From the NCBI GenBank assembly GCA_963674825.1, contig OY771587.1, positions 480,001-544,000 on the forward strand: a stretch of DNA of 64,000 nucleotides, given 5' to 3'. This stretch comes from Candidatus Cloacimonadales bacterium. GTDB taxonomy: Bacteria > Cloacimonadota > Cloacimonadia > Cloacimonadales > JAIOQZ01. Position numbers and translations under genes: made by a program. Of this stretch, positions 21,813-56,836 are shown piece by piece. The notes beneath the pieces are model-generated. The model was not told where the DNA came from and did not search any database. It saw only the letters and a program-made list of their open reading frames with translations. Position 1 is the first letter of the stretch, and the number at the start of each line of letters is the position of its first letter.

Positions 21813-24800
21813 CTAAAAGTCAGTGTGCGAATCATCGTATCCATCATCCATCGGCAGGACGATTTCGATGTCGTCGCCAGCGTATTTATTACTTGATTTT
21901 CCGGTGCTTGGAGCTGGTGGGAGCGACTTTCTCTTCGCAGGAGCCGGAATACTCGGACCGCGGTCTTCGAAACGGCGACCTGCTCCGGTGTTCATCGACT
22001 GGCTCAATTGGAATTCCTGAACCATCGAGCGAAGTTCGGCAGCCTGTGAGTTCAGCTCTTCAGCAGCACTTGCGGATTCCTCGGCGTTCGCCGCGTTACC
22101 TTGGGTAACCTTGTTCAGCTCGCCGACCGCTACATTCACCTGACGAATGCCTTCCGATTGTTCATCGGACGACACAGAGATTTCCTTAACGATATTGTTC
22201 ACCTTAGTGAAACTTGCTTGGATGTCTCCGAACGACTGGGTTACTTCTTCAACGATCTTCGCGCCGTCTTCGGAATTCTTCAGCGAGGTTTCGATCAGTT
22301 CGTCGGTGTTCTTGGCTGCTTCAGCGCTACGCAGCGCGAGGTTCTTCACCTCTTCCGCCACGACAGCGAAGCCCTTGCCTGCCTCTCCTGCATGCGCAGC
22401 TTCCACAGCGGCATTCAGTGCGAGGAGATTGGTCTGGAACGCGATATCGTTGATCGTCTTAATGATGTTGCTGGTTTCATGCGCCGATTGAGTAATCGCC
22501 GCCATTGCACTATTCATACGGGACATCGCGCTGTTTCCGGAATGTACATGTTTCAGGGATTGCTCGGAAAGAACCATTCCCTGTTTTGCATTCTCTGCGT
22601 TGTTCAGCGTGAGTGAGTTCATCTGCTCGAGGCTGGATGCGATTTCTTCCAGCGAGCTTGCCTGTTCGGATGAACCGGAAGCCAACGATTGGCTACCGTT
22701 CGAGATCTCACCCGATGCTGAAGAAATCTGCTGAACCGCACGATCGACCTGAGTCAGTGCGTCCTCTAAGTTATCACCCGCATTATTGATATTCTGTTTG
22801 AATTCGTTGAGATCGCCCTTATAGTTTCCGCGAACTCGAGCTGTCATGTTCTTGCTTGCCAGTTCGCTCATGACATTCATTGCTTCAGTCAACGGGTTGA
22901 CAACCGCGTCGAGCAGCCTGTTGATACCTTCCACGAGTTCCTGGTAAGCGCCTTTGTGTTTCGCGGCATTCGCACGTTTTTTCAATCTGCCGTCGGTCGC
23001 CGACTGGACAAGTTCCTGAGCGTCGTTGATAAGCTGCCCAAGAGCACCCTTCACGTCTGCAAGACTCTGATTGATTGCCTGGAAGCGCTTTCCAGTCTCT
23101 TCGGTATCTTTATCAGTCGATCCAACAGATGTCTCGAAGTTCACATCGCCATCTGCAAGAAGTTCCAGACGACCCAGAACCTTTTTAACTTCCACTTCCT
23201 GATAGGCGTTAATTTTTTCTGTTATCCGTTGAGCGGTTCTGATTACCGTAAGATCGGTTACTACCTCAAGTGCACCAACGATATCACCCTGACGATTCCG
23301 AACAGGAAGTCCACGGTATTCGATATCGAGATTCTTGCCCATCGGGTGTGCTTTGGTCTCACTCTGCATTGCGGCACCTGATCTCATGCACTTGCCAAGC
23401 GCGCACTTCTCGTTATTACAGTCATCCGTCTTGATATGATCGTAGCATTTCTGTCCAACAAGACTCTGTTGCGTTTTTCCGACCATTTCAGCGCCGCTCT
23501 TGTTCATGAACTGGATATTGAAGTTTTTATCAACAATCATATTGGGAGTTGGTGACATGTCGATGATTCCAATGATCGTATCGACGACTTCATTCACACC
23601 GGCCATGAGATTTTGATAGCTACCCTCGTGACGCTTTGCATCAGCGCGGGTCATGAGCTTACCAACAACAAGATCATTTACCAGTTGATCCACGTCGTCC
23701 AGCATACCGTTCAGCGTTGTGATACACTGGTTCAGGTTGTCTTTGATCTCGTTGAAATCGCCATTGTACTTGTCGGTAATCAGCGGAGGCATGATACCTC
23801 TGGATATCTTGCCAACGTAGTCAAGTGTAACATTGATCGGTTTGACGAAGGCTTCGATTAAGCTGTTGATACCGTTAACTGAATCGGTAAAATCCCGTCC
23901 AACCGTGGAGGAATCAAGGCGATCTTTCAACTGGCCTTGGATTACAGCATCAATGACGCTTTGAATCTGGGCATTTACACCCTTGATCTGCTTACCAATC
24001 GAATGTCCGAGATAAATTCCGATAAGTGTGAAGATTACACCAAGAACCAGCGCGGTTATAATAATGGTGATCAACATTTTGTGGACAGGGGCCAGGGCTT
24101 CGGAAGCATAAGAACCCATCGCGATTGACCAGGTTGTGCCTTCGATTGGAGAGTATCCCATATATCGGACTTCACCCTCGTAAAAGTAGTTACCTGTACC
24201 AAGCTTGCCATTGATCATCTCAGTCATAACCATCGCAAGTTCTTTAAATTTGGCATCTTTCTTAGATTCATTGATATAGTTGACCTGATTAAGAATCAAA
24301 TCTGCATTCTTGTGGCCAACCATAGTCCCTTCCGAATCAATAACAAAGGAGTAGCCCTTCTCACCATATGAAAGGCTATTTGTGATATCTGTAAGAAACG
24401 TTCCCGGAAGTCTTCCGATTAATACTCCCTGGATTTGTCGGTTGGAATTACGTATTGGAGTTGCAACAATGAATACTACCTGATTGGTCGCACGGCTGAC
24501 GATCGCATCGCTTATTACCGTTTTTCCGGCTAACGCATCTTTAAAATATTTGCGATCACTTACATCAAGCTGCTTTCCGTCAGGATACGTTGCATTTCCT
24601 GATTGATCTACAACTGCCATACCGATGAATTGAGTTGCACTCACTTCCTTTATCATTGCTGAGCGCTGCTGTTCCCATTCCCAGGATGTCATGACGTTGC
24701 GATCTGCAATTGTTTCAAGCTGTCTTTCAACAACCTCAATGTTTGCCGATACTGCTTTCGAACCAGTTTTGGCCAGTTCGACAAGTGTCAGCTCCAATGC

Positions 24801-24917
24801 ATTGATCAACGCCTTGGATGACGACATATAATTGATCGTGCCAAGTATCAGTACGATTGACAGTACTACCCCGACAATCAGTATCAGCACTTTGTTGCCA
24901 ATTGTGAGACCTTTCAT
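21813..24917 (-). CDS. Methyl-accepting chemotaxis protein (dCache, TM, poly-HAMP, PAS, MCP signal)
   Basis: Two TM helices around a Cache domain (DVSDRKYFK); IAFQTNLLALNAAVEAAHAGEAGKGFAVVAEEVKNLA signalling hairpin. Confidence 0.95.
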   Translation of the reverse strand: MKGLTIGNKVLILIVGVVLSIVLILGTINYMSSSKALINALELTLVELAKTGSKAVSANIEVVERQLETIADRNVMTSWEWEQQRSAMIKEVSATQFIGMAVVDQSGNATYPDGKQLDVSDRKYFKDALAGKTVISDAIVSRATNQVVFIVATPIRNSNRQIQGVLIGRLPGTFLTDITNSLSYGEKGYSFVIDSEGTMVGHKNADLILNQVNYINESKKDAKFKELAMVMTEMINGKLGTGNYFYEGEVRYMGYSPIEGTTWSIAMGSYASEALAPVHKMLITIIITALVLGVIFTLIGIYLGHSIGKQIKGVNAQIQSVIDAVIQGQLKDRLDSSTVGRDFTDSVNGINSLIEAFVKPINVTLDYVGKISRGIMPPLITDKYNGDFNEIKDNLNQCITTLNGMLDDVDQLVNDLVVGKLMTRADAKRHEGSYQNLMAGVNEVVDTIIGIIDMSPTPNMIVDKNFNIQFMNKSGAEMVGKTQQSLVGQKCYDHIKTDDCNNEKCALGKCMRSGAAMQSETKAHPMGKNLDIEYRGLPVRNRQGDIVGALEVVTDLTVIRTAQRITEKINAYQEVEVKKVLGRLELLADGDVNFETSVGSTDKDTEETGKRFQAINQSLADVKGALGQLINDAQELVQSATDGRLKKRANAAKHKGAYQELVEGINRLLDAVVNPLTEAMNVMSELASKNMTARVRGNYKGDLNEFKQNINNAGDNLEDALTQVDRAVQQISSASGEISNGSQSLASGSSEQASSLEEIASSLEQMNSLTLNNAENAKQGMVLSEQSLKHVHSGNSAMSRMNSAMAAITQSAHETSNIIKTINDIAFQTNLLALNAAVEAAHAGEAGKGFAVVAEEVKNLALRSAEAAKNTDELIETSLKNSEDGAKIVEEVTQSFGDIQASFTKVNNIVKEISVSSDEQSEGIRQVNVAVGELNKVTQGNAANAEESASAAEELNSQAAELRSMVQEFQLSQSMNTGAGRRFEDRGPSIPAPAKRKSLPPAPSTGKSSNKYAGDDIEIVLPMDDGYDDSHTDF

Positions 24918-24956: not shown

Positions 24957-25454
24957 CTATTTCTTCTGGCTGGCTTGCAGTTCCCGCATCTCGGTCAATT
25001 CCTTGCGTGAGAGTATCCGACCTGTATCGAGAAGGGTTATCACCTTCCCCTTGATCTTCGCCATACCTTCTATATAGTTATTATCGATGCTGGAACTCAT
25101 CGTCGGTAATTCGTCGATGAGCTGATCGTCGATATCGATAACCTCAAGCACATTATCCACAATCATTCCGATGATCACTTCGCTACCCTGCACCGGTACT
25201 TTCACCACGATAATGCTTGTGCGGTCGTCATATTCGCGTTCCGGCAGGTTAAGCCTCAACCGGAGATCCATTACAGGCGTGATTCGTCCGCTTCGATTGA
25301 TTACACCTTTGATATACGGCGGTGTTTGTGGTATTGGTGTGATTTCAGGAATTGCAATGATCTGGACAATGTTATCAACATTGATACCGTATGGCTGTTC
25401 TTTAAGGAAAAAGGCGAGAAACTTGATGTTGTTCTGGCTGACGTGATCGTCCAC
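24957..25454 (-). CDS. cheW: Chemotaxis adaptor CheW
   Basis: ITPIPQTPPYIKGVINRSGRITPVMDLR, IGMIVDNVLEV; GTG start after AGGAGG. Confidence 0.93.
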   Translation of the reverse strand: MDDHVSQNNIKFLAFFLKEQPYGINVDNIVQIIAIPEITPIPQTPPYIKGVINRSGRITPVMDLRLRLNLPEREYDDRTSIIVVKVPVQGSEVIIGMIVDNVLEVIDIDDQLIDELPTMSSSIDNNYIEGMAKIKGKVITLLDTGRILSRKELTEMRELQASQKK

Positions 25455-33353: not shown

Positions 33354-36300
33354 GTGAAAAAAACGGTACTGATCCCCATTCTTCTAGCGCTTTCGATTGT
33401 GATGCTGTTTTCTCTCGACAGTCAGAACCTCACCACCGAAGACGTATTCAGCTACAGCGCTACCAGCTCCGGTAACGTCGAAATGCAGTTCTCCACACCT
33501 GGAATGTCCCTGGAATCGTTCGAATCAGAACTGGGAACCTTTTCCAAGGTCAACATCGCAAGTCGCGATATCCCCTTTGTAACCGTGAAAGAAGGCATGC
33601 CAGAGCTGCCTTTCTTCAGCACGATGATCGCAATCCCGAATCACGGCTCTGTCGTTCTCGATCAACTGACTCTCAGCGAAAACCGGATTCCCTCCAATCC
33701 CGTGTATCCCTTCCAGAACACGGAAGAAGAACGCTCTGCCTTGATGGTAAACAACACGTTCTACCAGAGCGGATCAATTTATCCGGCAGAAGCTGTGCAG
33801 GTTGGCGAACCGGTCATCATGCGCAACCTTCGCATGGTTCCTGTGAATGTCTATCCTTATGCTTACGACCCGCAGACTCACGAGCTTGTCGTTCGCGATG
33901 ACATTTCATTCCAGATCAACACGAATAACACACCAGGTGTAAACGAGATTAACACCGACCGTCCGCTTTCGCGCAGTTTCGAGCCAATGTACCGCTCGGT
34001 TATCCTCAACTACGACGACATTCGTGATGAAAACCCCGTATATCAGAGACCTTGCATTTTAATTGTTCAGTGCGATAACTCCGCGGTTGACGATCAGGTT
34101 GCACAGCTTGCCGATTGGAAGCGCACCAAAGGCTTTGAAGTAACTGTTGTCAGCACTTCCGAGACTGGTGTTACTACCAATGGTATCAAGTCGTACATCC
34201 AGACAGCATACGATACATGGGAAAATCCGCCCGAGTACGTGATCCTTATCGGCGATGCCGGCGGTAGCTACGATATTCCCACCTGGAACTCGACAGGCGA
34301 CCACCCCTATACGCAGCTCGATGGCGGTGACATCCTGCCCGAAGTATTTATCGGACGCCTTTCCATCAGCAGCCCAACCGACATGATGACAATCCTCCAG
34401 AAGATCAACCTCTATGAGCGCGACCCTTATCTGGACGACCTGTCCATGTATCATCATTCATTGCTCGTGGGCGACACCAGTCCTTCCGGACTTTCCTGTG
34501 TCCTCACCAACAAGTACAATAAAGAACGGATCCTAACGTATGATCCGACCCATACTTTCACCGAGCTTTATGATAGCCAGCCAAGCCCAAGCCTGATGGA
34601 CAACGCCATCAACGCCGGTTCGCTCTTCTTCTCATACCGTGGTTATATCGGTATGAGCGGCTGGACGACAAGCAATGCCAACAACCTAAGCAATGTGAAC
34701 ATGCTGACCAACGCGGTAATCATCACCTGCGATACAGGCACTTTCGCATCGACCTATGATATCGCGCGTACGGAAGCCATACTCCGCGCCGGAACTCCAA
34801 CTGCGCCCAAAGGCGCTTGCAGCGCGATTGGTATGTCAACTTCCAGCACGCACACGCAGTTCAACAACATCCTGATGGGCGGTATCTTCCACGGCTTGTA
34901 TTCCAACGGAATGCACAACATGGGCCAGGCCATTATGTCCGGTAAGCTATACCTCTATCTCGGTTACGGAAATGTCAGTTCATCTACAGTCCAAAACTTC
35001 ACACAGTGGTGTAATCTGATGGGAGACCCGTCAATGGACATCTGGCATGGCGGACCAATGGAAATGACAGCCACCTACGAAACCTCCGTAGGCAAGGGAC
35101 AGGGCTATATCGATGTCTATGTTTGTGATGACAACAACGAACCACTCGAAGGCGTATGGGTTACCGCTCGCAAAGGCGAGGACGAACTCTTCGGTACCGG
35201 CCTGACTGACGATGCCGGTATGGTTACCGTCTCCTTCGATCCCGATCAGAGTGGCCTGGCAAATCTTACGATCACCAAGCCGGATTATATCCCGATCCTT
35301 GGTAGCTTCACCATCGAAACTACCGGTGGAATCGCTACAACCGATTTTACCGTCGATGACGACGATACAGGCTCTTCCAGCGGTAACAACAACGGAGAAC
35401 CAAACTCCGGTGAAACGATCGAGCTGTTCCTGAACCTGCATAACTACGACAATTCTTCAGCATCCAACGTAACCGCGGAGATTTCCACGGATGATGTATG
35501 GGTCGATGTTACACAGGATACTGATTCTTTCGGCACCATCTCTGTCAATGGTAATGGCGAAGGCCAGGCAGGTTTCGTTGTAGAAATCGCGGCAGACGCA
35601 CCCGACAAACACATCGTTCGTTTCGATCTCTCAATTACAGACGACGGCGGAAATAGCTGGGACAATAGCTTCTGGATGGAGATCAAAGGTAATGACGCCG
35701 ACGTTGAAGCAATACAGTACGTTGATGGCAACGATGGCGAATTGGAACCTGGCGAAACCAGCGACCTGGTCATCACCCTTCGTAACAACGGCGAAACCCT
35801 GCTTCAGGGAGTTTATGGCGCACTCAGAACCAACAGCTATTACCTGCGTGTCGATGACTCTCTTGCATACTTCGGCCCAATCACCCAGAACGGACAGGCA
35901 AGCTGTACAGCCGATCCATTTACCATTACCGGTCTTGGTATCGCGCTGCCAGGTCTCACCGTAAAAGCTCAACTTCGTCTATTCAACGATAACGGGTACG
36001 AGGAATTCGAAGACGTCATCATTCATGTCGGCGAAGCCGGCGCAGGCGACCCGATCGGTCCCGATGAATACGGATACGTCTGCTATGACTCTGAAGACAC
36101 GGACTACACGGATGCTCCTGTTTACGACTGGATCGAGATCGATCCGACTCACGGTGGATCCGGCACAAATACAGGAATTTCAGATAACTACGAAGAAGGC
36201 GACGACCTCGAGTATGTCGATCTGCCATTCACATTCAAATTCTATGGCGAATCTTACAATGAAATCGGTATCTGTTCGAATGGATGGATCACATTCATCG

Positions 36301-38825
36301 AGACCGAGCAGATGACATTCCGTAACTGGTATATCCCCGGTGCTCTCGGACCAGCAGCGATGATCGCGGCATTCTGGGATGAACTCAGAACAGGTAGCGG
36401 CGGAATCTATACATGGTACGACAGCACAAACGACTATTTCGTCATTGAATGGTCTCGCGTACAAAACTGGGTCGGTAGCGCGGAAGAGACTTTTGAAATC
36501 ATCCTCTACAATCCCGAGACCTACATCACACAGTCCTTCGACGGCATGATCAAGATTCAGTACATGACGTTCAACAATACTGACGCGAACCTCGACCCGT
36601 ACAACGAGCAGGGTAACTATTGTACCGTCGGTATCGAAGACCATACCGAATTACGCGGTCTTCAATATACCTATAATAACGAGTATGGCGAATCTGCAAT
36701 GCCACTCGGTGACGAGACTGCGATCCTTTTCACCGGTTTGCCGATGAGTTCGCAGGACAGCTACCTGATCCTCAATAGTGTCTTCCTGCACGATGCAGAC
36801 GGAAGCGGAATGGCGGATGCAGGCGAAAGCGTCGATCTGAGCATCAAGGTCGATAATGTAGGCATGTCTCCCGCAACGGGAACAACCGGTACGATCGTCT
36901 GCGATTCACCGTATATCGATATTACGGACGGTTCATCACCGTATGCAGACATCCCCAGCACCTACAATGGCTTCAACCTCGACCTCTTCAGCTTCGATGT
37001 ACTGCCTTCATGTCCGAATCAGTACGAAGCGCATTTCACTTTACAGCTGAATAACGACGATGGCTACTGGGAATACCCCTTCACGATAATCGTTTACAAA
37101 CCCACCGTCGATATTCTCTCTGCGATCGTGTATGATACTACCGGCAATAACGACGGCGTCTTCGATCCGGGTGAAGAAGGCTACCTCATTATCAACCTCG
37201 AAAACAACACCAACTCGCTCGCTCGCGAAGTATCCGCTGAGTTATCTGTCGATAGCGACCTCATCACCATCGGCGAATCGACAATGGAATTCGGAGATAT
37301 CGGCGCAGGCATGAACATGCAGAAAGCATACCCGATAACCGTGGATGCATCCATCCCCGTAGAATCTATGGTTCTCTTCACGGTGGATGTCGATTTGTAC
37401 GGTGGAACAGGCCAGACATTCGACTTCCAGGCTGGTATCGGTATTTGGGGCGCTCAGTCTGACTTCGAAGAAGACAATTGGAGCTTCACTCCGACCGGTA
37501 GCTGGGAATGGGGTACACCAAGCCTTGGCGCTCATTCGGGCACAAAGGCATGGGCGACTCGCCTTTATGCCAACTACTTCAACAACGCAGACTGGAAGCT
37601 CGATTCAACCGAATTCTATATCGGCCCATGCACAGAGCTCCACTTCTGGCATAAATATCAGACACAGACCGGCTACGACGGTGGCAACGTGAAGATCTCG
37701 ATCGACGGTGGAAACACCTGGAACGTTGTAGAGCCAAACGGCGGGTATCCTACCGCTTCGATCTCGAACGGTACTGCCGGCATCGGTGGAGAACCTGCCT
37801 ATTCCGGTTATCAGAATGAATTCACCGAAGCGGTTTTCGACCTCTCAGCATACAGTGGAAACTACGGTATCCTTCGCTGGCACTTCGGTTCAAACGGCTC
37901 AACTATCGCCTATGGCTGGATCATCGATGACGTTCTGGTCACCGGCAGTCAGGAAAAGGGCGCCGGTATCTCAGGTACTGTGACCCTGAGCGAAAACATG
38001 GCCGATATCGAAGATGTCGCCGTGACAACCGGGCTCTACACGACGCATCCAGACGCAGATGGGAACTACCTGCTCTACGTCTCCGAAAACACCTACGATC
38101 TCCAGGCCAATCTCGAGTACTTCGAAAGTGGCCTGATCGCTGACTTCGAAGCCGTTCCGGGAACTATTTCCACCGGAAATAACATGGTGCTGACATACCT
38201 GCAACCGGTTACGAACGCCGAGTGGTCACAGCTCAACGGTAGCGTTACCCTGACCTGGAACTACGAAGCACCGATACGGCATGAAGCACGCAACCAGAAA
38301 GGCCAGAGAACCACCTCCCGCGAGGAGTTCGAAAGCTTCAAGGTTTATCGTCAGGAAGAGACTGGACCGATGGTACTTGTCGGATCAGATATCACCGACT
38401 ACCAGTTCGTAAATCAGATCGATTCCCTCAAGACCTACACATATCAGGTTGTAGTAGAGTACGATGCCGGCCTCAGCGTACCGGTTGAGGTAGAGGATGT
38501 CTATTGGGATGGCACATTCTTCGGAAACGAGCCGAATGCTCCGTCCTATGTCAACAACCTCGGATCGAATTACCCGAATCCGTTCAATCCCGAAACCCGC
38601 ATCGATTTCAGCCTGAAGAACGCATCTCAGACCACACTCAAGATCTACAACATCAAGGGTCAGCTGGTCAAGACGATGGTCGATGCGAAATTGTCTGAAG
38701 GTGAACACCAGGTTATCTGGCGTGGAATCGATAATCGTAACCAGCCTGTTTCATCCGGTATCTACTTCTACCGGCTCGATACCGATGGTTATTCATCCAC
38801 CCAGAAAATGCTGCTGCTGAAGTAG
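33354..38825 (+). CDS. Peptidase C25 (gingipain-like) multidomain secreted protein with T9SS/FlgD-type C-terminal domain
   Basis: Propeptide (GMPELP), LADWKRTKG, PEYVILIGD, PEVFIGRLS, NLMGDPS; C-terminal NYPNPFNPET...SSGIYFYRL...KMLLLK. Confidence 0.92.
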   Translation: MKKTVLIPILLALSIVMLFSLDSQNLTTEDVFSYSATSSGNVEMQFSTPGMSLESFESELGTFSKVNIASRDIPFVTVKEGMPELPFFSTMIAIPNHGSVVLDQLTLSENRIPSNPVYPFQNTEEERSALMVNNTFYQSGSIYPAEAVQVGEPVIMRNLRMVPVNVYPYAYDPQTHELVVRDDISFQINTNNTPGVNEINTDRPLSRSFEPMYRSVILNYDDIRDENPVYQRPCILIVQCDNSAVDDQVAQLADWKRTKGFEVTVVSTSETGVTTNGIKSYIQTAYDTWENPPEYVILIGDAGGSYDIPTWNSTGDHPYTQLDGGDILPEVFIGRLSISSPTDMMTILQKINLYERDPYLDDLSMYHHSLLVGDTSPSGLSCVLTNKYNKERILTYDPTHTFTELYDSQPSPSLMDNAINAGSLFFSYRGYIGMSGWTTSNANNLSNVNMLTNAVIITCDTGTFASTYDIARTEAILRAGTPTAPKGACSAIGMSTSSTHTQFNNILMGGIFHGLYSNGMHNMGQAIMSGKLYLYLGYGNVSSSTVQNFTQWCNLMGDPSMDIWHGGPMEMTATYETSVGKGQGYIDVYVCDDNNEPLEGVWVTARKGEDELFGTGLTDDAGMVTVSFDPDQSGLANLTITKPDYIPILGSFTIETTGGIATTDFTVDDDDTGSSSGNNNGEPNSGETIELFLNLHNYDNSSASNVTAEISTDDVWVDVTQDTDSFGTISVNGNGEGQAGFVVEIAADAPDKHIVRFDLSITDDGGNSWDNSFWMEIKGNDADVEAIQYVDGNDGELEPGETSDLVITLRNNGETLLQGVYGALRTNSYYLRVDDSLAYFGPITQNGQASCTADPFTITGLGIALPGLTVKAQLRLFNDNGYEEFEDVIIHVGEAGAGDPIGPDEYGYVCYDSEDTDYTDAPVYDWIEIDPTHGGSGTNTGISDNYEEGDDLEYVDLPFTFKFYGESYNEIGICSNGWITFIETEQMTFRNWYIPGALGPAAMIAAFWDELRTGSGGIYTWYDSTNDYFVIEWSRVQNWVGSAEETFEIILYNPETYITQSFDGMIKIQYMTFNNTDANLDPYNEQGNYCTVGIEDHTELRGLQYTYNNEYGESAMPLGDETAILFTGLPMSSQDSYLILNSVFLHDADGSGMADAGESVDLSIKVDNVGMSPATGTTGTIVCDSPYIDITDGSSPYADIPSTYNGFNLDLFSFDVLPSCPNQYEAHFTLQLNNDDGYWEYPFTIIVYKPTVDILSAIVYDTTGNNDGVFDPGEEGYLIINLENNTNSLAREVSAELSVDSDLITIGESTMEFGDIGAGMNMQKAYPITVDASIPVESMVLFTVDVDLYGGTGQTFDFQAGIGIWGAQSDFEEDNWSFTPTGSWEWGTPSLGAHSGTKAWATRLYANYFNNADWKLDSTEFYIGPCTELHFWHKYQTQTGYDGGNVKISIDGGNTWNVVEPNGGYPTASISNGTAGIGGEPAYSGYQNEFTEAVFDLSAYSGNYGILRWHFGSNGSTIAYGWIIDDVLVTGSQEKGAGISGTVTLSENMADIEDVAVTTGLYTTHPDADGNYLLYVSENTYDLQANLEYFESGLIADFEAVPGTISTGNNMVLTYLQPVTNAEWSQLNGSVTLTWNYEAPIRHEARNQKGQRTTSREEFESFKVYRQEETGPMVLVGSDITDYQFVNQIDSLKTYTYQVVVEYDAGLSVPVEVEDVYWDGTFFGNEPNAPSYVNNLGSNYPNPFNPETRIDFSLKNASQTTLKIYNIKGQLVKTMVDAKLSEGEHQVIWRGIDNRNQPVSSGIYFYRLDTDGYSSTQKMLLLK

Positions 38826-40066: not shown

Positions 40067-43000
40067 TTATTTCAGGAGCAACATCTTACGGCTGTAAGAC
40101 TTGCTCGAAGTTGAAAGGCGATAGAAATAGATACCGGACGATACGGGCTTGCCGTTTTCGCTGGTACCGTGCCAGGTAAGGCTATGCTCGCCGGCGGACA
40201 TTCTTTCATTCACCATCGTCTTGACCAGCTGACCCTTGATGTTGTAGATCTTGAGGGTGACAGGCTGCTTGCTGTCGCTGGCGGAGAGGCTGAACGAGAA
40301 GGTTGTTTCCGGGTTGAACGGATTCGGATAATTGCCAACGAGGGCAGTAACCGCTTCCGGAACGTCGGTTTCTTCATTCGCTACAATCGTCTGCGTGCAG
40401 GCTGTGCGGCCGATATCGCCATAAAGGAACGGCCATGCGCTCAGGTTGCCGCAGCTATTCTTGAGATCCCACAGAGCGATACCGGTATTGGTGCCGGCCA
40501 CGAGTTCTGCGGATCGTTATGATCGACATTGCAGAGGCTGACAGAGCTCTGAGTCGGTACACCATATCCGATCGGGAAGTATGCCAGGTTTTCACCAGCG
40601 GCATTGAGTCCCTGAATGGTACCTTCAGAATTGATCACGATAAGATCATTCATTCCATCACCATCGACATCACCGGCAACCGGTGTTCCGTCGATGCCGG
40701 AACCGAGGTCGATCGGCCAACCGGTAAGCGCGGTGCCATCGTCTTCCATGATATAGGTGTTACCGTTTTCGAGCGAGAATGCCAGTTCGTAGTCGTTGTC
40801 GCCGTCGAAATTCGCAGCGATAACAGACTTGGAGATCTTGGCACCCATGTCGAGGTCGGTGATCACAGAGCCGTCTTCGATGATATAGAGATGGTTATTG
40901 TTGCTGCTGATCGCAATACGACCGTCACCGTAGATAACCGGTGTATTGATAATCTGACCACCGAGGGTCACAGATGCGTAAGTTCCATCATTTTCGACAA
41001 TGTAGAGGTTTCCATCGAAACAGCCAACCACAACTTCGTTCGTTCCGTCGCCATCGACGTCGCCAAGCGCTGCGCCACCAAGGATACGTTCCGGCATTTC
41101 AAGCGGGAAGTTTTCCTGAGAAACACCATTAGCGTCCATGACATACAGATAGTGGTTCATGTTACCAACGATCAATTCTTCACGGCTGTCGCCGGTGAAA
41201 TCGCCGATTGTCGGTGTGTTCATAAATAACTGGTAGTCTTCGCCCTGGAACAAGATCGAACCGTCGTTATCGATGATGGTGATCTTGTGGTCGTACGATG
41301 CAGCAGCGATTTCGAGCTGCGGATCGTTGTCCATGTTACCAATCGCGAGGCTGGTTCGGATGTTTGCGCCGGTTTCAACCGGGAATCCCGAGATGTCGCC
41401 GCCATTCACGTTCAGAGCATAAATGTAACCGGACGCGTCAGCCGAGATGATCTCTTCGTTACCGTCGTTATTGAGATCGACAACGACCGGAGCGGAGTAT
41501 ACGGAAGTCTCGGTTGTGTACGGGAAGTTCGGGTAGTAAAGCAGCACGTTGGCTGTCAGGGTATATTGCTTCACGAAGTAGGTGTCGGTTCCTTCATTGG
41601 CAACCAGCTCGACAGTGAATTCATTCTCACCGACCGGGCAATCTTCAGAAAGCTGAATGATGAAAGGATCTTCGTAGTTATCGGAGGTCGATCCCGGTCC
41701 GAGAGTACCGAATTCGCGATATCCGTCTATGACTTCGATGTACGGATTGTCTGAAACAAGCGTAGCGCTCGAGTACTGAGCTGCGCCGGTACCAGGATTG
41801 TTGATAAGCATTACGACAACCTGAGCCTGTTCGCCCGGGTTGAGGATGCCGTCGCCGTCACCCTCGTATTCGGTAACCTGCTGATAGAAGATATCGAGGT
41901 CGGGCATGTTGCCTTCACCGTTGTAGATCGCAACTTCAGGATCACCGAAGAGCACCATTTCAAAGTAGACCCAACGATAGGTTCCACCGGTGGTTGCGTA
42001 AGCGGCAAGCTCTTCCTTGGAATAGCTAAGCGCTTTACCCATCTCGCGGATGTTTTCGAAGAAAAGACCGCGGAAGTATTTCTTGTCGAATTGCTGAGAA
42101 GCACCATTGGTGCTGCCGTTTGCATACCAGCCGTAGCGGGTGTTACCGACGAATGCGAACCAGCCGTGGTCGTCGAACAGCATGTGCTCGCCGATACATT
42201 CCACGTCACCGCTTGTAGCCTGATCGAAAGCCAGCGCATAGCAGCCCTGGGAGTAAACGAACGGGTATTCAGTGTTACTGAGGTTCTGAATCATACCGGG
42301 GGTCATACCCATTGCGTAGTTGTAGTCGCAGTGTCCCATGTGATTCATAAGACCAGCCTGATCATCATTGATATGAGCAGTCAGGTCGTCTGTGTTGAAG
42401 GTTCCGTCTCTTTCGTAGAGAGTCGTGACATTGTAGTAGCTCGGGAGCATCTGTGTGTTGTCGCCGATCTCATCTTTGTAGTCGCCACCCCAGGTAGGAA
42501 CATCGTCAAGCTGCTCGCCGACGAGCGTACACTTGTCGATCGAAGCTGCCGGGAAGTCAACATACTGGATGGTCTTGTAGATCATGTTTTCGAAATCTTG
42601 CATGGTGTCGCCGGGATAACGGCCCACGTGAACTTCCGCGAAGAGGTCGACGTTGTCGTTGGTCTCGCCGAAGATCTGGTCGCCATCGGCGTTCCAGCTA
42701 CCGTCAAGTGCTCCGTAGTACAGATCGCAGGGGATACTGTTATCGGTTTCGTTGACATGGCCCCATACGCCACGGATCGGGATGATTTCATCATCACCGG
42801 CCAGTAGTACGTATTCGAGCGGGGTATTGGTGGAAGCATAGGTTTCGTACGCGTCTGTGATGAACGCACGAAGCTTGCCGGAGGTTGTTCCAGTGTATTC
42901 GGAGTAGATATCGGTGATGCTGAACACGCCGGCGGTTACGCCATGCTCGCCCTTCCAGTCTGCGTATTCCTGGAAAAGGTCAACGTAGTCAGCGCCACAA

Positions 43001-43677
43001 ACGATGATGTACTGATACGGATCGTTAATATCAACGAGGTCGCGGTTGAGCTGCGGGGTGTTCTGATTCGGGTAGCTCTGGACCTGCTGCGGGTTACGGG
43101 CAAGGATATTTACCCGCTCCATGATGCTTTCGGATTTACAGATCATGCGGCTCTGTTCTTCGCGAACAGACGCATCCGCTTCGGTTTCGATGTGGATATC
43201 GACTGAACGATAGTAACCAAGACGTCCTGAAACGGGCATATATTTGTAGGGATAGACGTTGACGATTGCCATGTCCATACCGGCGAGGCGCTGAACGGAT
43301 GCAAGCTGGAAGTCGTATGCAGGATACGCTTCATCCGAGCTGTAGATCGCTTCGTTGCGTGATGTTTCAGTGATGTTCATGCCGGTGTGTACGGGCGTGA
43401 AATTGAATGGAATATCCCAGTCGCCTTCGAGTTCCGTGTAATCGGAAAGCTCGACAACGATGTCGCTGATGGATGTTCCGTAGGGGAGCATCAGGTTGTA
43501 GCTCTCGAACGGAAGCATCGGGGCTCCGACTTCGGGAATTACGAAGTTGGCATCAGTCGCGGGGTTGCCGCTTCTGGTGATAGGTGGAGTATTGACGGTC
43601 GTGCTGTAGTCAACCGATTCGGCTGCCAGCGATACGAGGGTCAACACCAATACGATTGTAAGTAGCAGGTTTCGCAT
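40067..43677 (-). pseudogene. Peptidase C25 + FG-GAP repeat protein with T9SS/FlgD-type CTD, split by a 1-nt frameshift near 40515 (real or sequencing error)
   Basis: ORF 40441-43677 carries the C25 domain (MNHMGH...SQGC) and FG-GAP repeats; ORF 40067-40501 carries the CTD. Adding one base at AAC G[G]A TCC joins them as CNVDHNGSAELVAGT. Confidence 0.85.
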
Positions 43678-53882: not shown

Positions 53883-54554
53883 TTATTCGTCCTTCATGAT
53901 ATAGCCTTTTCCACGCACCGTGTAGATGAGCTTCTTGCTGAAACCGCGATCCATCTTGTTACGCAGGTGGTGGATATAGACATTAACGACGTTGGTTACT
54001 GGGTCGTAGCTCATGTCCCAGACATTCTCCACGATTTCCAGTTCGGAGACCACGCGGCCCTTGTTGCGCATGAGGAATTCGAGCAACGCGTATTCTTTGC
54101 CTGTCAACTGAACGACTTTACCCGCGCGATTCACCCTGCGGCTGAGGAGATCGAATTCAAGATCGGCTACTCTGAGCACGATTCCCTTGTATTCATTGTC
54201 ACGGCGAAGCAGTGCGCGTATACGTGCGATCAATTCGCTGAACGAGAAAGGTTTGCAGAGATAGTCGTCAGCTCCAGCATCAAGACCTTTGATCTTGTCT
54301 TCGATCGTGTCTTTACCCGTGAGCATAATAACGGGTGTCAGGATTCCCTGTTTGCGCATGGTCCGGCAAACTTCCACGCCATCCTTTCCTGGAATCATGA
54401 TATCCATTACGACTAAATCGTATGTGCTTTTCGAAATTTTATCAATGGCCTCATTGCCATTTGCTGTAACTTCCACCACGAAGGACTCTTCCTCAAGACC
54501 CTTCTTGATGAACGCTGCAACCTTTTGTTCGTCTTCAACCAGTAGTATTCGCAT
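53883..54554 (-). CDS. OmpR/PhoB-family response regulator (CusR/CzcR-like), no adjacent kinase
   Basis: MRILLVEDE, GLDAGADDYLCKPF, LTGKEYALLE, VYIHHLRNK...TVRGKGY; ATG 54554 after GGAGG. Confidence 0.93.
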   Translation of the reverse strand: MRILLVEDEQKVAAFIKKGLEEESFVVEVTANGNEAIDKISKSTYDLVVMDIMIPGKDGVEVCRTMRKQGILTPVIMLTGKDTIEDKIKGLDAGADDYLCKPFSFSELIARIRALLRRDNEYKGIVLRVADLEFDLLSRRVNRAGKVVQLTGKEYALLEFLMRNKGRVVSELEIVENVWDMSYDPVTNVVNVYIHHLRNKMDRGFSKKLIYTVRGKGYIMKDE

Positions 54555-54641
54555 ACTGCGTACCTCCATTTAATCTAAAACCAAAACTCACTTGCATGAT
54601 TCTAGTTAAGACACTCTATCTTTTTTTTATCATAGATATAT

Positions 54642-54668
54642 TAAACCGTCGCGCCAAATTGCCGATAA
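54642..54668 (+). promoter_or_regulatory. Sigma-28 (FliA/SigD) promoter
   Basis: TAAA (54642-45), a 15-nt spacer, then GCCGATAA (54661-68): an exact match to the consensus. Confidence 0.85.
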
Positions 54669-54681
54669 AAAAATGTATATT

Positions 54682-54716
54682 TTTTCGCATGGATGCAAAA
54701 TTGATTCAGGGAGGAA
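54682..54716 (+). promoter_or_regulatory. Two CsrA/RsmA-type binding sites in the 5' leader
   Basis: GCATGGATGC hairpin (54687-96, ANGGA) flanked by T/A runs, and ATTCAGGGAGGAA (54704-16) overlapping the Shine-Dalgarno. Confidence 0.7.
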
Positions 54717-54719
54717 GAA

Positions 54720-54860
54720 ATGAGCATTCGCAATGAATCACGTCAAACCGTGTCACTGAGCATCGATTCGATCGAAAAACTGGCCGGTCTGACGCACAAT
54801 CAGATTATCGAGCATCGCACAGACGCGATTATCGCACAGGTAGCACAGATACCTGCATAA
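54720..54860 (+). CDS. 46-aa flagellin-C-terminus-like microprotein
   Basis: MSIRNESRQTVSLSIDSIEKLAGLTHNQIIEHRTDAIIAQVAQIPA; GGAGG SD; residues 16-45 match the flagellin tail pattern D-x7-(L/F)T-x-N(Q/N)I(L/I)-x5-A-hh-AQ-x2-Q-x-P without gaps. Confidence 0.7.
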   Translation: MSIRNESRQTVSLSIDSIEKLAGLTHNQIIEHRTDAIIAQVAQIPA

Positions 54861-54905
54861 TTCGTCAACGCTTTGTTTCGAAAACGTCTTCCTTTGACGT
54901 TTATG

Positions 54906-54943
54906 AAAATGCCGCTCTGGAAACCCTGAGCGGCATTTTTTAT
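54906..54943 (+). terminator. Bidirectional intrinsic terminator closing the sigma-28 unit and the ABC operon
   Basis: AAAATGCCGCTC...GAGCGGCATTTTTTAT. Confidence 0.85.
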
Positions 54944-55024
54944 CATCTGAGAGGCTCGCTTGTCTTAGAATTCGATCCCTCTCTATTCTCTATTCATTGT
55001 TCACTGTACTTCGTAAATTATCCC

Positions 55025-56836
55025 TTATCCTGTTAGCAACGCTTTTTCGTTCTCCTCCAAGAACTGGTTCGTGTAGAGCTTGTAGTAATAGCCCTGCAAG
55101 CGAATCAGGTCGTGATGTGTTCCCTCTTCGATGATCTCGCCATTGTTAATTACCAATATCCTGTCGGCTGAACGAATCGTCGAAAGCCTGTGCGCGATGA
55201 GGAAGCTCGTCCTCCCTACCAACAGCTTATCGATAGCGTCCTGGATAAGGTGCTCAGTTTCGGTATCGATCGAGGAAGTCGCCTCGTCGAGGATAAAGAT
55301 CTGCGGATCGGATATAATCGCGCGCGCAAAAGAAAGCATCTGCTTCTCGCCGGTGGAGAGCATGTTACCGCCTTCGCCCACGCTCGTATCGAGTCCCTTC
55401 TCCATGCGAGCGATGAGCCTGTCGGCATTGACCATTTTCAGTGCTTGCATGATCTCTTCGTCGGTCGCGTCCAACTTCCCATAGCGGATGTTGTCACGGA
55501 TTGTGCCATTGAAGAGGTGCGGTGTCTGAAGCACCACGCCGATGTTCGACTGCAATTTCTCCAGGGGGATATCGTGGCTATCGACGTCATCGAACCGGAT
55601 GTTTCCCGATTGCGGCTGATAAAACCTGCAAAGCAGATTTACGAGCGTTGTTTTGCCGGAACCGGTCTCCCCCACCAACGCGATCTTTTCGCCGGCGCGG
55701 ATGGTGAGATCGAAATCATTGAACACGGTCTCGCCTTCCTTGTAGGAAAAGTTCACTTTATCGAAGCTAATCTCCTTTTCGATGCGGAATGGCTTGTTAC
55801 CCCAGCTCTTGATACGCTCTTCGTCGTCTTTGATCTCAACTTCTGTGTCCAGGAGTGAGAAGACGCGTTCTGCTGAGGCTTGCGCGTTCTGCATCTCCGC
55901 GAAGATTCGAGCGATTTGCCAAACCGGCTCGAAGAACTGAACGATATAAGAGGTAAACGCCACCAGCGTACCGTAAGTCATCACTCCAGCGATGACCCCC
56001 GAACCACCGAACCACACAACGAGCCCCGAACCCAATGCGCTGATAAACAGCACGACCGGGAAGTAGATCGCCGAAAGAACCGCAGCCCGAACCGACGCTC
56101 CGTACATGGAGCCGCTCAGCGTCTGGAATTCCTTCAGATTCGCCTTCTCGCGCACCAGCGTCTTGGTCGTCTTGGCGCCGTTGATGCCTTCATTGAAAGC
56201 ACCTGTTATCTTCGAATTGATCTTGCGCACCTTACGATAGGAACCCAGGATCACCTTCTGGAATTTCAGGCTGACGATCACCAGAACCGGCACCACCGAA
56301 AGCGCGATGAGCGCCAGCTTCCAGTTGAGGATCAGCATCACGATCGATATACCGATCATGAGGGCTGTTCCCCACACCATATCGACAATACCCCAGGCGA
56401 TGGTCTCGCCGAGGCGTTCGCAGTCGGAAGTCAGGCGAGCCATGAGCCAGCCGACCGGCGTGCGGTCGAAGTATGTGAAAGAGAGCTGTTGCAGTTTATT
56501 GAATCCGTCCCTGCGGATATCGTAGATCATGTTCGTTTCCAGCTTTCCCGCGATCAGGATAAACAAGCAGATCACAAACCCGAAGAGGGTAACGATACCG
56601 AAGTATAGCGCAGCGAAACCCCAAATGCCATCGAGGTTCTTCGGGACAATGTAGTGATCGATCACGTATCGCGTGAACAGCGGAAACACCGTGTCCATGA
56701 GTGCTGTCAGCAACATGCAGGCGAGGAGTATCCCCACCAGCACCTTGTATTTCATCGCATAACGGAATACACGTACCCACAGCTTGAGGTCGAATCGCTT
56801 CGTGTAATCTTGTTCTTCGAATGCTGTATGTGCCAT
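55025..56836 (-). CDS. ABC exporter subunit (TMD-NBD fusion), multidrug/peptide type
   Basis: Six TMs; GETGSGKT; LSTGEKQ (non-canonical signature); ILDEATS; IAHRLST. Confidence 0.94.
   Translation of the reverse strand: MAHTAFEEQDYTKRFDLKLWVRVFRYAMKYKVLVGILLACMLLTALMDTVFPLFTRYVIDHYIVPKNLDGIWGFAALYFGIVTLFGFVICLFILIAGKLETNMIYDIRRDGFNKLQQLSFTYFDRTPVGWLMARLTSDCERLGETIAWGIVDMVWGTALMIGISIVMLILNWKLALIALSVVPVLVIVSLKFQKVILGSYRKVRKINSKITGAFNEGINGAKTTKTLVREKANLKEFQTLSGSMYGASVRAAVLSAIYFPVVLFISALGSGLVVWFGGSGVIAGVMTYGTLVAFTSYIVQFFEPVWQIARIFAEMQNAQASAERVFSLLDTEVEIKDDEERIKSWGNKPFRIEKEISFDKVNFSYKEGETVFNDFDLTIRAGEKIALVGETGSGKTTLVNLLCRFYQPQSGNIRFDDVDSHDIPLEKLQSNIGVVLQTPHLFNGTIRDNIRYGKLDATDEEIMQALKMVNADRLIARMEKGLDTSVGEGGNMLSTGEKQMLSFARAIISDPQIFILDEATSSIDTETEHLIQDAIDKLLVGRTSFLIAHRLSTIRSADRILVINNGEIIEEGTHHDLIRLQGYYYKLYTNQFLEENEKALLTG

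Follow-up and report, generated by a model that had tools for sequence, protein, structure and literature searches.

What does a free-standing ORF of 46 codons do behind control signals of the flagellar type? The ORF lies in a 64,000-nucleotide stretch of a Candidatus Cloacimonadales genome (contig OY771587.1; hereafter the window), and the original prediction, made from the letters alone, regarded it as a miniature flagellin, reduced to the C-terminal helix, that is controlled by sigma-28 and CsrA and acts as a cytoplasmic decoy. Flagellin homeostasis, which involves FliS, FliW, CsrA, and sigma-28/FlgM, is a textbook partner-switching circuit. All the sequence elements that had been listed (promoter, two-GGA leader, Shine-Dalgarno sequence, ORF, and terminator) were found in the sequence. 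The transcription unit, entirely on the plus strand, runs from a sigma-28-type promoter (54642 to 54668) through a 5' leader of ~45 nt with two GGA sites, a predicted CsrA-type dimer site (54669 to 54719), and a GGAGG Shine-Dalgarno sequence to the ORF, which encodes 46 aa (54720 to 54860, stop codon included), and ends with a strong intrinsic terminator (54906 to 54941) composed of a 13-bp stem and a 10-nt loop with a GGA, followed by a U-run. A small 7-bp hairpin (54883 to 54903), seen in the RNA fold and not conserved in orthologs, separates the stop codon from the terminator.

The predicted fold of positions 54672 to 54945 has an energy of -84.5 kcal/mol (z = -3.8), and none of 200 shuffled sequences was as stable. 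A simple terminator scanner with a loop limit of 8 nt reported no site at the locus because the loop of the terminator exceeds 8 nt. Every ortholog carries a hairpin 3' of the stop codon, in sequences that cannot be aligned with each other (12/100 columns invariant). On the minus strand, the unit is flanked by a divergent OmpR-type response regulator gene, lying outside the unit (53886 to 54554), and by a convergent ABC transporter gene (55025 to 56836), which we used as the syntenic reference when assigning positional orthologs. The response regulator is 90% identical in genome G001 and absent from the locus of the second genus described below, and outside its genus we found only paralogs with 34 to 36% identity. 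The CheW (24960 to 25454) and MCP (21816 to 24917) genes announced for the window were both found, on the minus strand.

We then asked how the ORF has evolved. Orthologs were found in all three other genomes of the genus, all of them 46 aa long, 67 to 72% identical, and free of stops. Among the four genus genomes, the dN/dS ratio over the whole ORF was 0.11 to 0.18, at a dS of 0.7 to 2; it fell to 0.05 to 0.13 for codons 14 to 46 and was 0.24 to 1.0 for the N-terminal 13 residues. The microprotein consists of a variable N terminus (residues 1 to 13) and a conserved helical core (residues 14 to 46). Codon positions 1 and 2 were invariant at 64 of 92 sites of the genus alignment, versus 15 of 46 for position 3. 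A second genus (G004 and G007) carries a positional ortholog of 49 aa between the same asparaginase-like and ABC transporter genes; the peptides of the two genera are only 21% identical, and the motif A-x-x-A-Q-V-x-x-I-P is kept in both. The length of the ORF is maintained without stops in all six carrier genomes, and a full-length flagellin is encoded at this locus in none of the relatives. These results bear out the earlier view that the gene is selected and not decaying. It is a genuine microprotein gene, young at the genus level and under purifying selection, found at one syntenic site in two flagellated genera of the Cloacimonadales.

The distribution of the microprotein is narrow. A profile built from the six peptides and run against 111 genomes of the order retrieved exactly these six (E <= 1e-20; next match, 0.03). 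In G006, the ABC transporter ortholog is present with no small convergent ORF beside it, and G005 is uninformative, since it is 81% complete and its ABC transporter match reaches only 40%. A search of 5.8 billion protein clusters returned the peptide itself and one relative with 72% identity, a scan of genome contigs returned only the three metagenome-assembled genomes of the same genus, and a profile search of 1.84 billion representatives returned its own cluster and two long repeat proteins. We dismissed the latter, an RTX-repeat protein and a RING/B-box protein, as similarities of composition. Neither Pfam nor NCBIfam has a family for the peptide; a match of the two genus-2 peptides to DUF3945 (E = 0.029) was taken as noise.

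The promoter is composed of TAAA (54642 to 54645), a 15-nt spacer, and GCCGATAA (54661 to 54668), a pattern that we take, following work on E. coli and B. subtilis, to be the sigma-28 (FliA/SigD) consensus. It matches this consensus at 12/12 positions, and its -10 element ends 51 nt 5' of the ATG. The exact 12-base pattern TAAA-N15-GCCGATAA has a single occurrence on the two strands of the 3,893,010-bp genome (3.89 Mb), for an arithmetic chance expectation of ~0.46 per genome. In the four genomes of the genus, the positions of the elements are invariant (12/12) whereas the spacer has drifted (4/15 invariant; Fisher one-sided P = 1e-4). At the corresponding place, the second genus has TAAA-N15-GACGATAT, a 10/12 match in which the CGATA core is kept, with a spacer that differs from that of genus 1 and also between the two genus-2 genomes. 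The sigma-28-type promoter is therefore both present and conserved, and transcription would start at about position 54675.

The genome encodes FliA (TIGR02479, 268 bits; cut-off, 190), and we looked for other promoters of the same type. Searching outside long ORFs with at most one mismatch gave eight rows, two of which correspond to the microprotein promoter; the six other sites, as well as two looser candidates, are not located upstream of any evident motility gene. No strict sigma-28 motif precedes cheW-MCP (best match with 4 mismatches), and the best matches upstream of flagellins 2 to 4 mostly have 3 to 5 mismatches, a lone 2-mismatch site there being found in G002 and unshared by the other genomes. 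The only conserved sigma-28-like site of a flagellin gene has 2 mismatches and lies 319 to 331 nt upstream of flagellin 1. In eight genomes, the relaxed motif was no commoner than its backward control, so that these data do not establish a sigma-28 regulon for the clade.

The upstream site of the leader, GCATGGATGC (54687 to 54696), contains a GGA at 54691 to 54693, and the GGA of GCAUGGAUGC at this place sits in an apical loop. The other GGA is part of the Shine-Dalgarno sequence CAGGGAGG (54707 to 54714), whose GGAGG is 5 nt 5' of the ATG; the GGA motifs of GCAUGGAUGC and CAGGGAGG start 19 to 22 nt apart. The predicted two-GGA leader was thus confirmed, and the same architecture heads all four of the tandem flagellin genes: the pattern CAWGGATG-N6-20-RGGAGG occurs five times in the genome, in the four tandem flagellin leaders and in the microprotein leader, and the CAUGGAUG hairpin plus GGAGG is common to the microprotein leader and the flagellin leaders of these genomes. 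The backward-read control gave 0 to 1 match per genome in eight genomes of the family, and in the remaining families of the order that have flagella almost every match to the motif was on a contig with flagellin genes. The alignment of the genus has 40 invariant columns out of 52 in the leader, versus 82 out of 141 in the coding sequence, and the locus of the second genus carries the same leader, near-identical between the genera. The first leader GGA is kept in 5/6 microprotein loci, G001 having GAA instead.

The leader motif matches the CANGGANG hexaloop described as the high-affinity CsrA site in a study of Campylobacter jejuni flaA (Dugar 2016, PMC4894983), and its spacing is near the optimum of ~18 nt between GGA motifs given there. 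The csrA (74.5 bits) and fliW (139.7 bits) genes are both within the flgK/flgL cluster. From the GGA architecture and the presence of these two genes, we infer that the leader is a CsrA-repressed leader of the flagellin type. The transcript does not resemble the CsrA-sequestering small RNAs of the CsrB/RsmZ type, as it has 2 to 3 GGA sites and Rfam gave, over positions 54400 to 55100, a sole match with an E value of 0.75, located on the terminator. Of the predicted dual control by sigma-28 and CsrA, the motifs and the fliA, csrA, and fliW genes are thus in place, and the control itself is a prediction from the sequence. The genome also possesses fliS and five flagellin genes, four of them in tandem. 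Of the 61 Cloacimonadales genomes searched, 23 yielded flagellin genes.

We then analyzed the sequence of the peptide. The original prediction had lined it up without gaps to a flagellin tail. With the genome's own flagellins such a line-up is real: residues 15 to 45 of the G000 peptide, encoded in the window, align ungapped to residues 281 to 311 of a 319-aa flagellin with 9/31 identities and E = 0.001 in a single comparison. It is, however, statistically weak. In a BLASTP search of the genome translated in six frames, flagellin ranked about 10th of 72,057 frames (E = 6.9), with nine unrelated frames scoring higher. The hhalign comparison with the five flagellins gave E values of 0.082 and 0.083 and a probability of 0.7%, and BLASTP aligned neither the G001 peptide nor that of genus 2 (G007) with flagellin at E <= 100. 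None of the six peptides matched Flagellin_C (PF00700) or Flagellin_N (PF00669) of Pfam at E <= 10. By these searches the peptides show no similarity to Flagellin_C above background, which is formally the outcome that the original prediction had itself named as telling against it. The ESR tripeptide said to precede the aligned block is found in the G000 copy only (the orthologs have EAR, EPL, and EKP) and needs an offset of 3 residues.

When the four genus-1 peptides were aligned ungapped with the five flagellins, the conserved proline fell on the proline of the flagellin C-terminal D0 segment (D0-C) in 20/20 best alignments, with shuffle P values of 0.003 to 0.22 for pairs that are not independent of each other; the genus-2 peptides were in this register in 1/10 pairs. 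In the ESM Atlas, 28 of the 30 clusters nearest to the G000 peptide carry Flagellin_C, and the top three (scores of 0.91 to 0.92) contain this domain in 13%, 57%, and 54% of their members, yet they share with the peptide 125 to 141 of 256 features, when true family members typically share 170. The G001 ortholog had no usable match in the Atlas. The aligned part of the peptide ends 8 residues short of the flagellin C terminus, and an N-terminal D0/D1 domain is impossible, since the protein has only 46 aa. Having no Pfam Flagellin_C match, the microprotein is not a flagellin and cannot polymerize. Homology with flagellin is not demonstrable from these sequences; the peptide may be of flagellin descent or may have come to resemble the flagellin tail by convergence.

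The fliS gene product of this genome is related to FliS proteins of solved structure, and we modeled its complex with the peptide. The model reached an ipSAE of 0.77 (0.77, 0.76, and 0.85 in the separate runs), compared to 0.00 for the best of three controls; 116 of 157 solved complexes attain the mark applied to this score, as do 2 of 215 mismatched pairs. The runs agreed in at least 80% of the contacts, the pLDDT of the partner was at least 69, and the interface comprised residues 12 to 46 of the peptide. The model was built with the genus-1 alignment only, headed by the most flagellin-like copy, and its score may echo the numerous solved structures of FliS with flagellin. Of the two targets suggested for a decoy, FliS is thus favored by the complex model, and FliW is unlikely because the literature places it away from D0-C, where FliS binds: Altegoer 2018 (PMC6070490) assigns FliW to the first 72 residues and D1-C of flagellin and FliS to D0-C.

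We propose, in what we judge to be an evenly balanced case, that the product is a microprotein of the flagellar regulon that occupies the flagellin groove of FliS and may form a CsrA-controlled, flagellin-matched, self-limiting brake or tuner of flagellum assembly. RNA polymerase with FliA would transcribe the gene late in flagellar assembly. CsrA would repress translation of the microprotein and of the flagellins together, FliW would relieve this repression, and as a consequence of the shared control the peptide would be made in step with flagellin. According to the model, the conserved helical core (about residues 12 to 46) would wrap around FliS in the manner of the flagellin C-terminal D0 segment. 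The peptide would then compete with flagellin for FliS and, as a speculation drawn from other bacteria, with an FlgM-like protein encoded beside fliS. Less free FliS would slow down flagellin export, flagellin staying in the cytoplasm would hold FliW, and the CsrA so freed would reduce flagellin translation along with that of the peptide.

The same co-regulation with flagellin would be expected if the microprotein belonged to the flagellar regulon and had another partner, acting as an FlgM-like anti-sigma-28 factor, a ligand of FliW/CsrA or of the FlhA export gate, or an exported small substrate with its export signal in the variable N terminus. The fast evolution of the 13 N-terminal residues would suit the last possibility, as in disordered export signals. 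Complex modeling covered one partner, FliS, and FliS binds FlgM, a small protein of the sigma-28 regulon, in Salmonella (cited in PMC8527033), so that a contact with FliS need not mean flagellin mimicry. On the other hand, none of the six peptides matched the FlgM anti-sigma-28 family (PF04316), and the gene adjoining fliS already encodes an FlgM-like candidate, a protein of 179 aa in which two FlgM-like domains score weakly (19 bits each; cut-off, 25). The binding sites of FliW on flagellin (PMC6070490) also speak against a FliW ligand, and the score of the FliS model is high against controls of 0.00 at best. We therefore regard a different partner as improbable, while keeping it in view.

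Alternatively, the RNA could be the main actor: a short transcript that mimics a flagellin leader would bind and titrate one CsrA dimer and thereby increase translation of flagellin while sigma-28 is active, the ORF serving mainly for ribosome loading or stability or making this a dual-function transcript. The leader is the best-conserved part of the unit, and its near identity between genera whose peptides have diverged to 21% identity fits an RNA-centered function at least as well as a protein-centered one. The correspondence to the CANGGANG high-affinity site with a 19- to 22-nt spacing, the extra GGA in the terminator loop of G000, and CAAGGATG in the terminator stem of genus 2 argue in the same direction, and a CsrA antagonist derived from an mRNA has a precedent (PMC4894983). 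We nevertheless find this reading rather unlikely. Purifying selection at the protein level is clear in codons 14 to 46, with A-x-x-A-Q-V-x-x-I-P kept across the genera, and 2 to 3 GGA sites mean that each RNA would hold at most about one CsrA dimer. In addition, G001 has lost the first GGA, and the transcript belongs to no Rfam family. The RNA and protein readings are compatible with each other.

A combined version, which we consider doubtful, would have an ancestral flagellin gene collapse to its promoter, CsrA leader, and D0-C helix and then be retained by selection as a double decoy, the RNA competing with flagellin mRNAs for CsrA and the peptide with flagellin for FliS. If this were true, one 270-nt unit would report sigma-28 activity into both the translation and the export arms of flagellin homeostasis, and its product would be the first microprotein dedicated to mimicking the substrate of a flagellar export chaperone. 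An origin as a collapsed flagellin pseudogene, or as an accidental ORF next to a fortuitous promoter match, would agree with the ~0.46 exact promoter matches expected per genome, with a peptide that belongs to no family, and with its weak flagellin similarity, but it is very improbable and close to refuted by an ORF unbroken in 6/6 carriers, a dN/dS far below 1 at saturated dS, invariant promoter elements around a drifting spacer, a leader conserved across genera, and relatives without a full-length flagellin at the locus.

We return to the proposal of a FliS-binding microprotein to compare it with known systems. One is flagellin D0-C as a client of FliS (1ORY, 4IWB, 5MAW/6GOW, 6CH3, and 6LEA), in that a helical segment of ~35 residues is likewise predicted to lie around FliS, the best alignment in genus 1 keeps the register of the conserved A-Q...L/I-P of D0-C, and the flagellin genes have the same leader and ribosome site as the microprotein gene. 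The microprotein differs from flagellin in that it lacks D0-N, D1, the variable domain, and the last 8 residues and is free-standing, with 46 to 49 aa. The leader recalls that of C. jejuni flaA, which is a dual-function CsrA target and titrator (PMC4894983): both have a transcript of the sigma-28 class, as predicted here, a leader of ~45 nt, and two GGA motifs ~20 nt apart, the first within the loop of a hairpin and the second in the Shine-Dalgarno sequence, within a FliW-CsrA system without CsrB-type small RNAs. Here, in contrast to flaA, the leader heads a separate microprotein gene and CsrA binding is predicted from sequence.

FliS also has partners other than flagellin. Its interaction with FlgM in Salmonella and Yersinia (as cited in PMC8527033) and the reported co-chaperone HP1076 of Helicobacter pylori (PMC7248283) resemble the present proposal, since FliS is bound by a flagellar-regulon protein other than flagellin, which links the availability of the chaperone to regulation. 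FlgM has no sequence relation to the microprotein, which is much smaller than either protein and is predicted in the flagellin groove. The components of the partner-switch circuits described for Hag, FliW, CsrA, and FliS in B. subtilis (PMC6070490 and PMC6529632) and in Borrelia burgdorferi are all present in this genome. In B. burgdorferi, loss of FliS function lowers flagellin synthesis via FliW and CsrA (PMC12327847), which is the logic proposed here for a competitor of FliS. None of these described circuits has a dedicated small FliS ligand that bears a flagellin leader, and among the matches listed from the literature on flagellin and FliS-FlgM we found no small protein that copies both the chaperone-binding tail of a substrate and the translational control of that substrate.

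If the peptide binds FliS, it would provide a FliS ligand that is both natural and minimal (46 residues), a means of testing feedback from chaperone availability to translation, and an example of a microprotein regulator that arose beside, or from, a structural gene. The present data document flagellar control signals in the Cloacimonadota, an uncultured phylum. The genus-2 ortholog, which an earlier peptide search had missed, was found through the leader pattern, and regulon-specific scans of leaders can thus reveal fast-evolving microproteins that escape protein searches.

We located the small gene in the window (480001-544000 of the complete 3.89 Mb genome) as a compact plus-strand unit at 54642-54941. 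It comprises a promoter (TAAA at 54642-54645, a 15-nt spacer, and GCCGATAA at 54661-54668), a leader with the motifs GCATGGATGC (54687-54696) and CAGGGAGG (54707-54714), an ORF of 46 codons (ATG at 54720, TAA at 54858-54860), a 7-bp hairpin, and a terminator with a 13-bp stem and a U-run (54906-54941). The elements listed in the original prediction, including the Shine-Dalgarno site, are all in the sequence, as are CheW and an MCP, 30 kb away inside the window. The predicted transcript fold has an energy of -84.5 kcal/mol (z = -3.8), and none of 200 shuffles was as stable; a consensus terminator scanner returned zero sites because the loop exceeds its 8-nt limit. The neighbors are a divergent OmpR-type response regulator and a convergent ABC transporter. 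Immediately 5' of the -35 element, the block TTTTTTTATCATAGATATAT (54614-54641) does not vary among the four genus-1 genomes and contains the palindrome-like TATCATAGATA, genus 2 having only a T-run and TATC there; the divergent regulator may act at this block, or the block may be the -10 region of that regulator's gene.

We then evaluated the leader. At 686.9-691.2 kb, where four flagellin genes stand in tandem, each has CA[AT]GGATG and, 11 to 14 nt later, CAAGGAGG immediately before the start codon, and the 10-mer GCATGGATGC is common to the small gene and flagellins 3 and 4. The pattern CA[AT]GGATG-N6-20-[AG]GGAGG has exactly five matches in the genome, the four tandem flagellins and the small gene; as it was composed after inspection of these sequences and ∼1.7 matches are expected by chance, its specificity counts rather than a P value. 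Reading the pattern backward gave 0 or 1 match per genome in eight genomes of the family, and across the order (111 genomes), the matches in other flagellated families were nearly all on flagellin-bearing contigs. The small gene's GGA spacing is 19 to 22 nt, with the motif of a CANGGANG apical-loop site, as in the Campylobacter jejuni flaA leader, for which the available part of Dugar et al. (PMC4894983) gives a CsrA dimer optimum of 18 nt. One other genus-1 genome (G001) has GAA for the first GGA. The flgK/flgL cluster includes both csrA and fliW. Given the shared leader, the matching site, and these two genes, CsrA control of the small gene is a well-founded reading of the sequence, and the two-GGA leader of the original prediction holds up. 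The apparent minus-strand order at G000:C1:1955683-1957811 (loci L006, L009, and L010) is flgK-like, csrA, flgL-like, fliW, and csrA therefore lies between two hook-associated protein genes, not after fliW. A GGA in the terminator loop (54918-54927) and CAAGGATG in the genus-2 terminator stem (L067, ∼1700-1760) could give CsrA a third contact with the transcript or could be chance.

Each tandem flagellin (G000:C1:686.9-691.3 kb, L001 to L004; orthologous clusters L041 to L043) has its own leader, and upstream of flagellins 3 and 4 all four genomes share the block GATTGGTTTGGTT and an 8-bp hairpin (TATAGGAC..GTCTTATA). No sigma-28, sigma-54, or sigma-70 promoter was recognizable for flagellins 2 to 4. 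A fifth flagellin-like gene (294 aa; G000:C1:3740430, L005), upstream of the fliS-containing region, has a near-consensus TTGACA-N17-TATATT promoter without the CAWGGATG leader, and seems from its sequence to be under different control.

The promoter consensus TAAA-N15-GCCGATAA, which we take to be of sigma-28 type from the consensus of other phyla, occurs exactly once in the genome, both strands counted; since about 0.46 chance matches are expected, a single match says little by itself. Conservation argues more strongly, with 12/12 element positions invariant in four genomes versus 4/15 in the spacer (one-sided Fisher test, P = 1e-4), and fliA is present. The sole other conserved near-match, TAAA-N15-TCCGATAT, precedes tandem flagellin 1 by 319 to 331 nt. 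No sigma-28 motif was found upstream of cheW-MCP, none of the near-consensus sites examined outside long ORFs preceded an evident motility gene, and a relaxed pattern showed no excess over its backward control in eight genomes. The proposed sigma-28 promoter is thus exact and conserved, but the motif is not general to motility genes, and a broad regulon of sigma-28 built on it is disfavored.

The leader scan also gave a non-flagellin match in both genus-2 genomes (G004 and G007). Each of the two has a 49-codon ORF with the same leader and a TAAA-N15-GACGATAT promoter ahead of it and a hairpin with a U8 terminator after it; the promoter spacers of the two genomes differ. On either side of this ORF lie orthologs of two genes from the window, the asparaginase-like gene and the ABC transporter (61% identity), the latter convergent as in the source genome; we therefore consider the ORF a positional ortholog missed by the peptide search. 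The peptides of the two genera align gap-free in the core (residues 14 to 46), yet with 21% identity; L21, A36, A39, Q40, I44, and P45 are among the invariant residues. A profile of the six peptides matched exactly its own members among 111 genomes of the order, and neither it nor protein database searches revealed relatives outside the two genera; in a further genus (G006), the transporter ortholog is present and the locus has no comparable ORF. As flagellins occur in 23/61 relatives, every one of the 7 in the family among them, the small gene is an accessory of two genera. Between genera the leader is far more conserved than the coding sequence, which favors action of the transcript as an RNA decoy, a possibility compatible with a role for the peptide.

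The coding sequence itself is also under selection. Among 61 genomes (the source and 60 relatives), the 3 others of the genus carry full-length, stop-free 46-codon copies (67 to 72% identity), and the best match in the remaining 57 had an E value of only 0.36. Nei-Gojobori dN/dS (custom script) was 0.11 to 0.18 for the whole ORF and 0.05 to 0.13 for codons 14 to 46 (dS, 0.7 to 2). In the four-genome alignment, 64/92 sites at codon positions 1 and 2 were invariant versus 15/46 at position 3; the leader had 40/52 invariant columns and the 100 nt 3' of the stop, nearly unalignable, 12/100. These comparisons show a real gene, and the intact copies, low dN/dS, and codon-position pattern exclude for practical purposes a decaying remnant, in line with the selection originally proposed.

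We then compared the peptide with flagellin. Pfam matched 0/6 peptides and NCBIfam 0/4, hhalign against five flagellins gave E values of 0.082 and 0.083 (probability, 0.7%), and in BLASTP against the genome's 72,057 six-frame ORFs, the best flagellin (E = 6.9) scored below nine unrelated frames. The G001 and G007 peptides gave no flagellin alignment at E ≤ 100, and the "ESR" said to precede both tails is not conserved among orthologs. In a single pairwise comparison, residues 15 to 45 aligned with flagellin residues 281 to 311 of 319 (E = 0.001). The best ungapped segment placed the peptide's conserved Pro on that of the flagellin C-terminal segment (D0-C) in 20/20 genus-1 pairs (4 peptides by 5 flagellins; shuffle P, 0.003 to 0.22, the pairs not being independent) and in 1/10 genus-2 pairs. 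An ESM Atlas feature search returned Flagellin_C-bearing clusters for 28 of the 30 nearest to the source peptide (scores, 0.91 to 0.92), with only 125 to 141 of 256 features shared, and no match for the G001 peptide. The "mini-flagellin" claim therefore stands as a resemblance in the FliS-relevant part (A-Q...I/L-P and hydrophobic register), descent from flagellin being unproven.

FliS was chosen for complex modeling on the basis of Altegoer et al. 2018 (PMC6070490), the available part of which has FliS wrapping D0-C and FliW binding D1-C and the N-terminal 72 residues. The fliS gene occurs in 18/41 genomes searched. With a 16-row FliS alignment and the genus-1 peptide alignment, the model reached an ipSAE of 0.77 (runs, 0.77, 0.76, and 0.85), the best of three controls scoring 0.00. 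This mark is attained by 116/157 solved complexes and 2/215 mismatched pairs, counts that are rough here because our own alignments were used. Runs agreed on at least 80% of contacts (partner pLDDT, at least 69), with 105 to 108 contacts over residues 12 to 46, the selected core. The prediction supports FliS binding, short of showing it; several FliS-flagellin complexes being already solved, the score may mirror likeness to them, which is the hypothesis itself. FliS mimicry is plausible, the case for and against it being about level.

We conclude that this is a real, unusual flagellar-regulon microprotein; all functional claims for it, in organisms that are uncultured, rest on sequence logic and one structure prediction. 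Late in assembly, sigma-28 would transcribe the small gene, CsrA and FliW would gate translation of the peptide jointly with the flagellins, and the peptide would occupy FliS. In Borrelia burgdorferi without FliS, cytoplasmic flagellin accumulates, FliW is sequestered, and CsrA represses flagellin synthesis (PMC12327847, available part). A FliS competitor would drive the circuit in the same direction, and the peptide would repress its own synthesis via its leader. In the portions of the literature covered, neither a microprotein that mimics flagellin nor a small, dedicated ligand of FliS under a flagellin leader is described.

The ORF directly following fliS (179 aa; G000:C1:3735908-3736447, minus strand; L033, 1291-1830) contains a tandem pair of FlgM-like domains, both weak (19.4 and 19.3 bits; cutoff, 25), and possibly encodes a double-domain anti-sigma-28. 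As Salmonella FliS also keeps FlgM from secretion (PMC8527033, available part), the peptide could, by analogy, affect sigma-28 activity too. Elsewhere in the window, the C-terminal sorting domains (Por_Secre_tail/FlgD_ig) of two very large proteins of the peptidase C25 (gingipain) family (33354-38822, plus strand; 40070-43677, minus strand) suggest that this genome of a flagellated member of the Cloacimonadales encodes a type IX secretion cargo system.
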